A DNA stretch of 64,000 nt, from assembly GCA_964345045.1 (NCBI GenBank), contig CAYFPM010000001.1, positions 467,784-531,783 on the forward strand, in the 5' to 3' direction. Numbering within the stretch: position 1 is the stretch's first letter; every line of letters starts with the position of its first letter. Shown one piece after another: positions 25,429 through 50,401 of this stretch. The position numbers and the translations under genes are program-made. Origin of the DNA: an uncultured Gammaproteobacteria bacterium (GTDB lineage Bacteria; Patescibacteriota; Patescibacteriia; Magasanikbacterales; UBA922). The notes below the pieces were generated by a model. It was not told where the DNA came from, did no database searches, and saw only the letters and a list, made by a program, of their open reading frames with translations.

Positions 25429-25499
25429 TCGGGGGTCGTCTAATGGTAGGACTCCAGGTTTTGGTCCTGGCTATCGGGGTTCGAATCCCTGCCCCCGAG
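25429..25499 (+). tRNA. tRNA-Gln(UUG)
   Basis: Hand-folded cloverleaf: acceptor TCGGGGG/CCCCCGA (U1-A72), D arm GTCT-AATGGTA-GGAC, anticodon stem CCAGG/CCTGG with loop TTTTGGT (anticodon TTG), T arm CGGGG-TTCGAAT-CCCTG, discriminator G. Confidence 0.7.
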
Positions 25500-25552
25500 C
25501 GAAGCTAAGTAAACTAAGTTTTCTAGGTTTACTGAGTTGCTCAAGTTATTTA

Positions 25553-25581
25553 TTGACGGCCAGTTTTTTTCTTGTTAAACT
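25553..25581 (+). promoter_or_regulatory. candidate promoter TTGACG-N17-TAAACT upstream of the intron-containing tRNA
   Basis: -35 TTGACG 25553-25558, 17-nt spacer, -10 TAAACT 25576-25581; about 85 nt upstream of the tRNA 5' end. Confidence 0.3.
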
Positions 25582-25666
25582 GTTCACGTTTACATATTAT
25601 TTGTATAACAAAATAACTTAGACAACTCAGTTTACTTATATTGTAACTTAGTAAACTTAGATATAT

Positions 25667-26069
25667 TCGGAGGTAGCTCAGTGGTAGAGCAGTTGGCTGT
25701 AAAGACTTAGCAGCTCTCGATGGAAACGTCGAGATGAATAACGGAGTGAACTGTCAGGAACCCTACGTCTCCTTGTGAGATACGGGAATCTGCAGCCAAG
25801 CTAGCTAGTTAATTTTGTCCGCTTTACGAAGCGGTTTGTAGCTATCTAGAAGGTTCAGAGACTATCCCATGCCCCACTTTGTGGGTCTGTACGGGAGTAC
25901 TCTTTGGTAATTTTTTACCAAAGGGGAAGCGCTCCGCACCCTAGCGTCTTCGCACTTTGACGAAGTGTCCCCCGGGACAACGGCGAGGGTGATGATATAG
26001 TCCACGCTCTTGGGAAACCTAGAGAAACGTGTAACCAATTGGTCGCGGGTTCGAATCCCGCCCTCCGAG
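25667..26069 (+). tRNA. tRNA-Asn(GUU) gene interrupted by a group I intron (exons 25667-25700 and 26032-26069)
   Basis: 5' exon TCGGAGG-TA-GCTCAGTGGTAGAGC-A-GTTGG-CTGT; 3' exon TAA-CCAAT-TGGTC-GCGGG-TTCGAAT-CCCGC-CCTCCGA-G. Joined, these give a 72-nt cloverleaf with acceptor TCGGAGG/CCTCCGA and anticodon loop CTGTTAA (GTT). The exons are separated by 331 nt. Confidence 0.7.
25701..26031 (+). other. group I self-splicing intron (331 nt) inserted between anticodon positions 35 and 36 of tRNA-Asn
   Basis: Conserved group I core elements are present: R GTTCAGAGACTA (25853-25864), S GATATAGTCC (25994-26003), Q AATCTGCAGCCAAG (about 25786-25799), P-like TACGGGAA. P1 pairs 5'-exon GCUGU with intron GCAGC (25710-25714), with the U·G wobble at the splice site. 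P10 pairs intron TTA with 3'-exon UAA. The intron ends in G (omegaG 26031). No ORF lies inside. Confidence 0.75.
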
Positions 26070-26073
26070 CACA

Positions 26074-26103
26074 TAAAAAATTGACTTAATGAAGTCAATT
26101 TTT
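26074..26103 (+). terminator. rho-independent terminator after the tRNA cluster
   Basis: AAAAAATTGACTT-AATG-AAGTCAATTTTTT: perfect 10-bp stem plus T-run. Confidence 0.7.
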
Positions 26104-26150
26104 TATTGATTTGCATTGGACGGTTCGAACTTCTAATGTTATTCTTTTTA

Positions 26151-26573
26151 TATATGAGAAATAAATATAAACATTTTGACTGGCATTCAGTAGGATTTAA
26201 TTTTGGAAATTGGGAAGAAGAATTGATTTGGGCATTAGACATGCCTGTTCAGAAAATAAACATTGATGAACTTACTTGGCATCTTGATATTCCATATTGG
26301 AAAAATGACAATGGAGAACGTTGGGCGATATCACCTCGAGATGTGATAAATAAAGAAGTAGGAAGTGTAAAAGAACAGAATAGAGTACACGACGTTGATA
26401 TATCTTATCCTATTGATTTGTATAAGCACGATGGAAAGCTATTTGTACTTGATGGTCTCCACCGACTTGTAAAACAATATGTGGATGGTGCAAAACGTAT
26501 TCAAGTAAGGATTGTTCCCAAAGATCGTTTTCATGAGGTTGCTTCTGAACATCCATTTGAATTGCCAAATTAG
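26151..26573 (+). CDS. ParB/sulfiredoxin-like nuclease-domain protein (hypothetical)
   Basis: ORF from 26106; the likely start is MRNKYKH (after the terminator). C-terminal ISYPIDLYKHDGKLFVLDGLHRLV resembles the ParB N-terminal/Srx fold motif (h-x-DG-H/h-HR). Confidence 0.45.
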   Translation, partial: YMRNKYKHFDWHSVGFNFGNWEEELIWALDMPVQKINIDELTWHLDIPYWKNDNGERWAISPRDVINKEVGSVKEQNRVHDVDISYPIDLYKHDGKLFVLDGLHRLVKQYVDGAKRIQVRIVPKDRFHEVASEHPFELPN

Positions 26574-28540: not shown

Positions 28541-28614
28541 AGCCATGAGCGAGATTTGAACTCGCGACCTACGCGTTACGAGTGCGTTGCTCTACCTGCT
28601 TGAGCTATCATGGC
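28541..28614 (-). tRNA. tRNA-Thr(CGU)
   Basis: Minus-strand cloverleaf GCCATGA-TA-GCTC-AAGCAGGTA-GAGC-A-ACGCA-CTCGTAA-CGCGT-AGGTC-GCGAG-TTCAAAT-CTCGC-TCATGGC-T. Anticodon CGT; a 31:39 A·C mismatch, as seen in some Thr tRNAs. Confidence 0.75.
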
Positions 28615-50178: not shown

Positions 50179-50310
50179 CATACTCATTATGCTCATTTTA
50201 CCTAGAAAAATAAGATCTGACAAGGATTCCCTTCTATTTATCTAAAAACAAACTCGCTTTTGCAAGTCTGTTTATTTTTTTAACTACAATTTACATGATA
50301 AAATATTTCT

Positions 50311-50389
50311 GTCCGCGTAGCTCAGCCAGGTAGAGCGCTCAGTCTACTAAACGAAGCAGAGGTCGTCGGTTCAAATCCGATCGCGGACA
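50311..50389 (+). tRNA. tRNA-like gene with canonical acceptor, D and T arms but a non-canonical, 5-nt-expanded anticodon region (identity undetermined; possible pseudo-tRNA)
   Basis: GTCCGCG-TA-GCTC-AGCCAGGTA-GAGC ... GTCGG-TTCAAAT-CCGAT-CGCGGAC-A. The 27 nt between the D stem and T stem (GCTCAGTCTACTAAACGAAGCAGAGGTC) cannot be folded into a 5-bp anticodon stem with a 7-nt loop. GCTCAG occurs twice (50320-50325 and 50337-50342). Confidence 0.45.
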
Positions 50390-50401
50390 TCTCTCTAAAA
50401 A

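Follow-up and report, generated by a model that had tools for sequence, protein, structure and literature searches.

An uncultured Patescibacteria-type bacterium carries, on the forward strand of the 64,000-nucleotide stretch of DNA analysed here (the window), a tRNA-Asn(GUU) gene (25667-26069) whose anticodon is interrupted between nucleotides 35 and 36. The locus is very probably a functional tRNA-Asn(GUU) gene from a bacterium near Candidatus Magasanikbacteria, split at this position by an endonuclease-free, 331-nt group I intron of subgroup IA. Introns of this class, at position 35/36 of tRNA-Asn, are not new and have been described in the literature of 2020 and 2026.

The split gene and the anatomy of its intron

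The gene was not called by ARAGORN when run without an intron search, which found five other tRNAs in the window. In intron mode, the unspliced DNA was reported as tRNA-Asn (gtt) i(35,331). The 5' exon reads TCGGAGG TA GCTC AGTGGTA GAGC A GTTGG CTGT and the 3' exon TAA CCAAT TGGTC GCGGG TTCGAAT CCCGC CCTCCGA G; CCA is not encoded. The joined exons form a 72-nt cloverleaf with the anticodon loop CUGUUAA, called tRNA-Asn(GUU) by ARAGORN. An earlier note on this DNA had claimed that a tRNA-Asn(GUU) gene is split within its anticodon by a 331-nt group I intron and that removal of the intron yields a 72-nt cloverleaf; both claims are borne out by the ARAGORN calls and by the Rfam match described below. 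ARAGORN found no second tRNA-Asn within the 64-kb window. A 106-kb metagenome contig (ENA ERZ930068, project PRJEB17505) matches the window, and the split gene was identical in a second metagenome sample.

The earlier note had also suggested that the locus be scored against the Rfam group I intron model and compared with the tRNA-Asn loci of relatives. With permissive filters and a search region of 651 nt (25550-26200), RF00028 (Intron_gpI) matched 25691-26024 over the full length of the model (positions 1-253 of 253), with a score of 68.4 bits (E 3.1e-17) that exceeds the family's gathering score (50). When the whole window was scanned with Rfam under default filters at the gathering threshold, five tRNAs were returned and the intron was missed. 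Folded by itself, the intron had a minimum free energy of -117.6 kcal/mol, with z = -3.6 relative to dinucleotide shuffles, and the unconstrained fold recovered P2, P3, P4, P5, P6, P7.1, P7.2, P8 and P9. All three core motifs proposed from the letters are present: R at 25854-25865 (GTTCAGAGACTA), S at 25994-26003 (GATATAGTCC) and Q at 25787-25800 (AATCTGCAGCCAAG). The helices and flanking features are listed in Table 1.

The P1 helix had been proposed as GCUGU paired with GCAGC, with a U·G pair at the 5' splice site. The U·G pair stood, and was invariant in 11/11 aligned sequences, but the helix comprises 6 bp rather than 5; its outermost pair is G-C in six of the aligned sequences, G·U in four and unpaired in one. 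The proposed 3-bp P10 and the terminal G were both recovered, P10 being 2-3 bp long across the alignment. In the relatives, the P2 loop is likewise of the GNRA type and the distal part of P6 differs in length. The P7.1 loop of the window copy contains an extra hairpin, CCCAC-UUU-GUGGG, and this insertion and those in P8 are lineage-specific. All six pairs of P7 were invariant in 11/11 sequences; since both P7 and the base of P7.1 are invariant, they provide no covariation information. In the alignment to RF00028, the bases of the P7 5' strand fell in columns that are conserved and unpaired. P7 is presumed to be the guanosine-binding helix, as is general for group I introns.

Table 1. Features of the split tRNA-Asn locus and its surroundings, in window coordinates
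Feature	Position	Strand	Details and basis
tRNA-Gln(UUG)	25429-25500	+	upstream; conserved FtsE-FtsX-tRNA-Gln-tRNA-Asn neighbourhood
tRNA-Asn(GUU) 5' exon	25667-25700	+	acceptor 5' strand, D arm, anticodon-stem 5' strand, loop nt 32-35 (CUGU); ARAGORN, spliced and unspliced
P1	25695-25715	+	exon GGCUGU 25695-25700 with internal guide GCAGCU 25710-25715; U25700·G25710 is the 5' splice site; Rfam alignment
Group I intron, subgroup IA architecture, 331 nt	25701-26031	+	RF00028, fold, covariation
P10 guide UUA	25707-25709	+	with UAA 26032-26034; 2/3 pairs invariant in relatives
P2 hairpin	25716-25733	+	7 bp, GAAA tetraloop 25723-25726; 7/7 pairs compensatory; in fold
P3 5' strand CGGAGUG	25742-25748	+	with 25930-25936; 3/7 pairs compensatory (GG/CC to AA/UU), cells 100% paired
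P4	25752-25758 (U25754 bulged) with 25789-25794	+	2/6 pairs compensatory; Rfam alignment, fold
P5/P5a	25761-25786	+	enclosed by P4; Rfam alignment, fold
P6 and long P6a/b extension	25795-25854	+	G25795·U25854, C25796-G25853; Rfam alignment, fold
P7 5' strand G-[A bulge]-GACUA	25858-25864	+	G25858 and 25860-25864 with 25998-26003, A25859 bulged; pseudoknot with P3
P7.1	25865-25896	+	UCCC/GGGA base invariant 11/11; in fold
P7.2 hairpin	25900-25925	+	10 bp; in fold
P3 3' strand CGCUCCG	25930-25936	+	covariation alignment
P8	25938-25990	+	two-hairpin branch in window copy; basal 4 pairs conserved, one compensatory; in fold
J8/7 GAUGAUA and P7 3' strand UAGUCC	25991-25997, 25998-26003	+	invariant or nearly so; Rfam alignment
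P9.0	AC 26004-26005 with GU 26029-26030	+	one of 2 pairs covaries (CG:6, GC:4, UA:1)
P9	26007-26024	+	GAAA loop; 6/7 pairs compensatory
Terminal intron base G26031	26031	+	directly after P9.0
tRNA-Asn 3' exon	26032-26069	+	UAA of anticodon loop, anticodon-stem 3' strand, variable loop, T arm, acceptor 3' strand, discriminator G26069
AT-rich hairpin then T run (possible terminator)	26075-26104	+	directly 3' of the tRNA; seen in sequence

An endonuclease gene, either within the intron or adjacent to it, was sought and rejected. No forward-strand ORF of at least 40 aa lies inside the intron, and a 126-aa minus-strand ORF that overlaps it (25862-26242) matched no family in NCBIfam, the one collection against which it was searched. 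The downstream ORF (26154-26573, 139 aa, scanned as 26106-26573) had no match in Pfam and only a non-significant hit in NCBIfam. The intron is therefore considered to lack a homing endonuclease. A blastn search of the locus against a phage collection returned no match, and there is thus no evidence of recent phage origin.

Relatives and covariation

Relatives were sought with a pattern that makes no use of the intron core: a tRNA D arm followed by any six bases, then CTGT, a gap of 4-24 nt and TAGCAG. This pattern matched at least 119 loci in a collection of species-representative genomes, and a further 13 viral contigs. Each match was then checked for a downstream G, TAA and the complementary anticodon-stem strand, followed by the T arm and acceptor strand. 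By this procedure, 101 of the 132 matches listed were verified as tRNA-Asn genes split at 35/36, with introns of 184-624 nt. Ten loci among the matches listed have both the acceptor-stem type of the window (TCGnnGn) and its intron core, and four of these align with the window locus over its full length at 66-69% identity.

The window sequence and the ten relatives were aligned with MAFFT (11 sequences), and 76 pairs were counted across the helices of the intron, its P3/P7 pseudoknot and P10 among them, and across the acceptor, D and T stems of the tRNA. Pairing was found in 96.0% of cells, compared with 35-48% when the 3' partners were slid by 1-3 columns. Both sides had changed in 30 pairs, distributed over intron helices and tRNA stems, and the observed covariation score was reached by none of 500 shuffles. 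The comparison with relatives that the earlier note had proposed thus yielded helices that covary across 11 sequences. At P4, the window sequence was offset by one column in the MAFFT alignment because of the U25754 bulge. Within the tRNA exons, the acceptor and T stems showed compensatory changes and the D stem was invariant.

Relation to the published tRNA-Asn introns

According to the preprint of Williams (2020; bioRxiv 10.1101/2020.01.27.920355), the classes of tRNA intron were widened from 4 to 21; these include 'Asn.4Ug', as quoted in PMC13011429. Patescibacteria with subgroup IA introns at position 35/36 of their tRNA-Asn were then reported by Nakagawa, Amikura, Omae and Suzuki (2026, mSystems; PMC13011429), who found group I introns at this position in 15 tRNA-Asn(GUU) and three tRNA-Asp(GUC) genes from 95 complete Patescibacteria genomes. 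The published homologues were typed as IA by subgroup covariance models (GISSD; Selles Vidal 2025), 25 of the 28 introns at 35/36 being placed in IA, and the majority are without endonuclease genes (PMC13011429). In vitro, precise self-splicing at 35/36 was established for the tRNA-Asn intron of GCA_016700035.1 by sequencing of the mature tRNA, and a change of the intron's terminal G to C stops exon ligation (PMC13011429). The earlier note had regarded an Asn(GUU) host with an insertion at 35/36 as atypical; that holds against the classic list of Leu, fMet, Ile and Arg hosts, but not against a class listed in 2020 and detailed in 2026 (PMC13011429).

The window intron could be aligned with the GCA_016700035.1 intron (Table S3 of that study) through the whole core, with identical junctions (GGCUGU/...GUG/UAACCAAUUGG). 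A second alignment, with the introns of GCA_016700035.1 and GCA_016699245.1, contained long invariant blocks in P3, P4, P6/P7 and J8/7. The window intron has in common with the Patescibacteria class its host tRNA, its site, its boundaries (U at -1 and a terminal G), a tendency to be mis-registered as Thr(UGU), the IA core GCAGCCAAG ... GGTTCAGAGACTA ... GATATAGTCC, and the lack of an endonuclease gene. The P7.1/P7.2 layout (GACTATCCC...GGGAGTA...GAAGCGC) is also common to the window intron and the published Paceibacteria members. The window intron differs from the published class in the hairpin inserted in its P7.1 loop, its branched P8 and its long P6 extension, and at 331 nt is longer than the validated intron of GCA_016700035.1 (234 nt). 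The host lineage also differs, being most likely Magasanikbacteria-like in the window.

Genomic context and host

The neighbouring genes are chromosomal and encode Fur, ZnuA, FtsE, FtsX, an inositol monophosphatase, a NUDIX protein and a PPIase. The same order of FtsE, FtsX, tRNA-Gln(UUG) and intron-split tRNA-Asn was found in Candidatus Magasanikbacteria CG11_big_fil_rev_8_21_14_0_20_39_34 (contig PCWN01000007), whose FtsE and FtsX proteins are 75% and 56% identical to those of the window. The presence of the intron at a syntenic locus, despite FtsX being only 56% identical, implies long-term retention. Among the matches listed, the closest loci include five labelled Magasanikbacteria, and six similar loci are labelled 'Gammaproteobacteria'. 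The host is most likely a Magasanikbacteria-like member of the Patescibacteria, an assignment drawn from synteny at a single locus and from how intron and tRNA cluster with the five Magasanikbacteria-labelled loci. Directly 3' of the tRNA, the AT-rich hairpin and T run may act as a terminator; a terminator scan called none, the hairpin having too few G-C pairs.

Magasanikbacteria presumably belong to the GTDB class ABY1. In the published survey, tRNA-Asn was detected by tRNAscan-SE in all four complete ABY1 genomes, and none of the four is in the intron table (Table 1 of PMC13011429). The occurrence of the intron in a clade of Magasanikbacteria is possibly, then, a small extension of the known range.

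Subgroup, splice sites and integrity of the intron

The presence of P7.1 and P7.2 between P7 and the 3' strand of P3 is a hallmark of subgroup IA, and the two helices found there in the window intron place it in that subgroup. Phage IA introns such as those of T4 td and Twort orf142-I2 have P7.1 and P7.2 in the same place and an R/S core akin to that of the window intron; they interrupt protein-coding genes and often contain an endonuclease ORF, whereas the window intron lies in a tRNA gene and has none. The classic tRNA introns, of cyanobacterial and plastid Leu(UAA), fMet, Azoarcus Ile(CAU) and Agrobacterium Arg(CCU), are likewise self-splicing group I introns of the anticodon loop, from whose nucleotides their P1 and P10 are formed, and are small and mostly without an ORF, like the window intron. 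They belong to subgroup IC3, which has no P7.1 or P7.2, and are located at 33/34, 34/35 or 36/37 rather than 35/36. In favour of an IC3 intron of this type are the location in the anticodon loop, the modest length, the absence of an ORF and the GNRA loops that close P2 and P9, all of which IC3 tRNA introns share. However, an IC3 assignment does not accommodate the two helices between the P7 5' and P3 3' strands, and P7.2 is backed by compensatory change in 3/3 of the basal pairs tested. Compact introns found at the same site in other phyla, in which P7 runs straight to P3, have a different core sequence. Most published introns at 35/36 were classed as IA, and none of the Patescibacteria tRNA introns was classed as IC (PMC13011429). 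The probability that the window intron is of the IC3 rather than the IA type is consequently vanishingly small.

Given a 7-nt anticodon loop, a U at -1 and a terminal G, only two splice registrations are available: tRNA-Asn(GUU) with the intron at 35/36, or tRNA-Thr(UGU) with the same intron shifted by two bases to 33/34, so that the exon ends at U25698 and the intron at G26029. The shifted registration also has a U at -1 and a terminal G; its product is accepted by ARAGORN, which made Thr calls for many of the loci from the pattern search. The spliced tRNA carries U1-A72 and the discriminator G73, a combination typical of bacterial tRNA-Asn. As the earlier note had held, the P1 of the Thr registration is the poorer one: U25698 pairs with A25712 within P1, and the wobble pair is U25700·G25710. 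Covariation in P9.0 fixes G26031 as the last intron base, two bases beyond the G that Thr would require, and the G required for Thr is absent in 75 of the 101 verified loci among the matches listed. In the same set, the Asn 3' exon was found in 101/101, with a discriminator G wherever that base was printed. The spliced tRNA is 62-64% identical to the tRNA-Thr(CGU) of the window (28541-28614), against 88.9% to the validated tRNA-Asn of GCA_016700035.1; its identity to a published Paceibacteria tRNA-Asn is 83%. Homologues are often called Thr by ARAGORN and tFind, and these programs often place introns of the 35/36 site at 33/34, so that the tRNA is miscalled as Thr(UGU) or as Ala(UGC), but the sequenced spliced tRNA of a homologue with identical junctions is tRNA-Asn (PMC13011429). 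The Thr registration is thus extremely unlikely, and the Asn(GUU) registration is adopted. It is also very unlikely that the locus is a decayed relic, in which the intron no longer splices, the tRNA is a pseudogene and Asn codons are decoded by another gene copy. The extra insertions in P7.1 and P8 would be compatible with decay, and the number of tRNA-Asn genes is known here from 64 kb of the genome alone. Against decay, every core position that is invariant in the ten relatives is intact in the window copy, compensatory changes maintain the helices, the exons form a clean cloverleaf by ARAGORN, and the same intron is found at the diverged syntenic locus. Moreover, intron-bearing and intronless copies of a tRNA with the same anticodon rarely occur together in one genome (PMC13011429).

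Proposed splicing and function

For an intact tRNA-Asn(GUU) gene with an IA intron, splicing would be expected to proceed by the two steps of group I chemistry. A single precursor would be transcribed, possibly jointly with the upstream tRNA-Gln. The P3-P9 core would then fold, braced by P7.1 and P7.2 and probably also by predicted contacts of the GAAA tetraloops on P2 and P9. Free guanosine bound in P7 would attack after U25700; G26031, placed by P9.0, would subsequently replace the guanosine, and the 5' exon would attack after G26031. CUGU would thereby be joined to UAA and the anticodon loop CUGUUAA restored. The window copy probably splices in this way in the cell.

A regulatory role for such introns was raised by Nakagawa et al., as speculation only (PMC13011429). 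As this may be the sole tRNA-Asn of a reduced genome, and as the first step of splicing depends on guanosine or GTP, the intron could serve as a gate through which the supply of mature tRNA-Asn depends on guanosine-nucleotide status or RNA-folding conditions. Such gating is improbable, but if it occurred it would explain why deeply diverged Magasanikbacteria have kept the intron at one syntenic locus.

Distribution of tRNA-Asn 35/36 introns and significance

The 101 verified loci among the matches listed are widely distributed. Patescibacteria is the most frequent label (26 loci), followed by Clostridia/Bacillota (20) and Omnitrophota (16). Nine loci are on viral contigs, eight carry third-party 'Gammaproteobacteria' labels, seven are from other or unclassified bacteria and six from Planctomycetota/PVC; the remainder are labelled Cyanobacteria/Melainabacteria (four), Deltaproteobacteria (three) and archaea (two).

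Eight of the introns from outside Patescibacteria and from viral contigs were viewed by eye, and were compact at 185-214 nt, with a different core in which P7 leads straight to P3; RF00028 matched five of these eight, at 41-94 bits. The compact introns, found in Omnitrophota, Planctomycetota, Clostridia, Melainabacteria and viral contigs, have the same host tRNA, site and TAGCAG guide as the window intron, but are 184-240 nt long, with another core and no helices between P7 and P3. On these features they are a structural lineage distinct from that of the window intron, which implies that two structural lineages use the same site in tRNA-Asn. A 624-nt version of the intron, in a Romboutsia genome and a viral contig, contains an ORF for a PD-(D/E)XK endonuclease (PF11645, E 6e-24).

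Both the default Rfam scan and tRNA finders that are blind to introns miss the split gene. Genomes in which it is missed would seem to have no tRNA-Asn, and would be scored as less complete (see also PMC13011429).

The understanding of group I introns is unchanged by any of these observations. Most of the verified 35/36 introns among the matches listed lie outside Patescibacteria, which suggests a hotspot of wider reach than was apparent in the survey of complete genomes, and this side observation on distribution may matter more than the window copy itself. To the described class, the window copy adds one more lineage, most likely Magasanikbacteria-like, in which synteny points to vertical retention of the intron over a long time.

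Introns at tRNA-Asn 35/36 outside Patescibacteria

The pattern search, run over species-representative genomes and viral contigs, yielded at least 101 verified loci among the matches listed (L005-L136), i.e., tRNA-Asn genes split between anticodon nucleotides 35 and 36, with a G and then a 3' exon made up of TAA, an anticodon-stem strand, a T arm and an acceptor strand. Twenty of the 101 carry Clostridia/Bacillota labels, 16 Omnitrophota, six Planctomycetota and four Cyanobacteria/Melainabacteria, with nine more on viral contigs; these are counts among the matches listed, not frequencies. Group I introns at this position are common outside Patescibacteria, among the matches listed.

The site is occupied by two intron lineages. 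Eight compact introns (185-214 nt), the non-Patescibacteria and viral cases inspected, lack P7.1 and P7.2, and their core (GCTAATTCAGGGAA ... GTGCAGAGACTTTACACCC ... AAGAGAAAGTCC) is unlike that of the window intron. The compact loci in the table match the Rfam group I intron model (RF00028) at 41-94 bits.

A longer intron was found in a viral contig and in a metagenome-assembled genome (MAG) of Romboutsia. Within it lies an ORF for a 165-aa PD-(D/E)XK endonuclease (PF11645, E 6e-24; checked in the viral copy). The viral contig and the Clostridia genome have introns of equal length in an identical exon context, and phage-mediated mobility is thereby suggested.

Six loci (L017, L026, L040, L053, L096 and L106) lie on third-party MAG contigs labelled 'uncultured Gammaproteobacteria', and their tRNA-Asn exons and IA introns group with those of the window and of the Magasanikbacteria-labelled L071, L084, L092, L103 and L113; the 'Gammaproteobacteria' labels look doubtful. 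Two MAGs with archaeal labels (L052, Pacearchaeota; L109, Woesearchaeota) contain a tRNA-Asn of bacterial type, interrupted by a group I intron (~206 nt). Both are probably cases of mis-binning, as was suspected in a similar case by Williams 2020 (bioRxiv 10.1101/2020.01.27.920355).

Flanks of the split gene and an odd tRNA-like gene

The spacer that separates tRNA-Gln from tRNA-Asn is 166 nt long and contains a promoter-like site ~85 nt upstream of tRNA-Asn. The hairpin on the 3' side is a possible terminator in a genome of low GC content; it was not called by the terminator scan, which passed over it because it has fewer than three G-C pairs. For the ORF directly 3' of the split tRNA, an annotated gene on the source contig, Pfam gave no match (range scanned, 26106-26573) and NCBIfam none that was significant. 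Elsewhere in the window lies a tRNA-like gene whose anticodon stem is 6 bp long and contains C·A and A·G mismatches. Its anticodon begins with A34, and its variable region is ~9 nt, where a normal tRNA-Ser would need a longer one.

Features of the window and of the loci compared
Feature	Location	Strand	Description
Promoter-like site	25553-25581	+	TTGACG, 17 nt, TAAACT, TG upstream; consensus match only
Hairpin	26075-26104	+	AT-rich, perfect, AAAAAATTGACTT/AAGTCAATTTTTT, then T run; six bases 3' of tRNA-Asn
ORF	26154-26573	+	139 aa
tRNA-like gene	50310-50391	+	ARAGORN: tRNA-Ser(ACU); Rfam tRNA model, 49 bits
Compact intron	L021:3158-3348
Compact intron	L034:4998-5208
Compact intron	L039:917-1125
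Compact intron	L130:3655-3850
Compact intron	L127:2678-2860
Locus with longer intron	L136:5429-6100		624 nt, tRNA-Asn 35/36; viral contig IMGVR_UViG_3300045988_163932
Longer intron	L028		624 nt, tRNA-Asn 35/36; Romboutsia MAG

Detection of the window intron

When the whole window was scanned with Rfam at the gathering threshold and default filters were kept, the window intron was not reported. With relaxed filters and the short stretch 25550-26200, it scored 68.4 bits against RF00028 (gathering score 50). Under routine annotation, the genome would appear to be without a tRNA-Asn.
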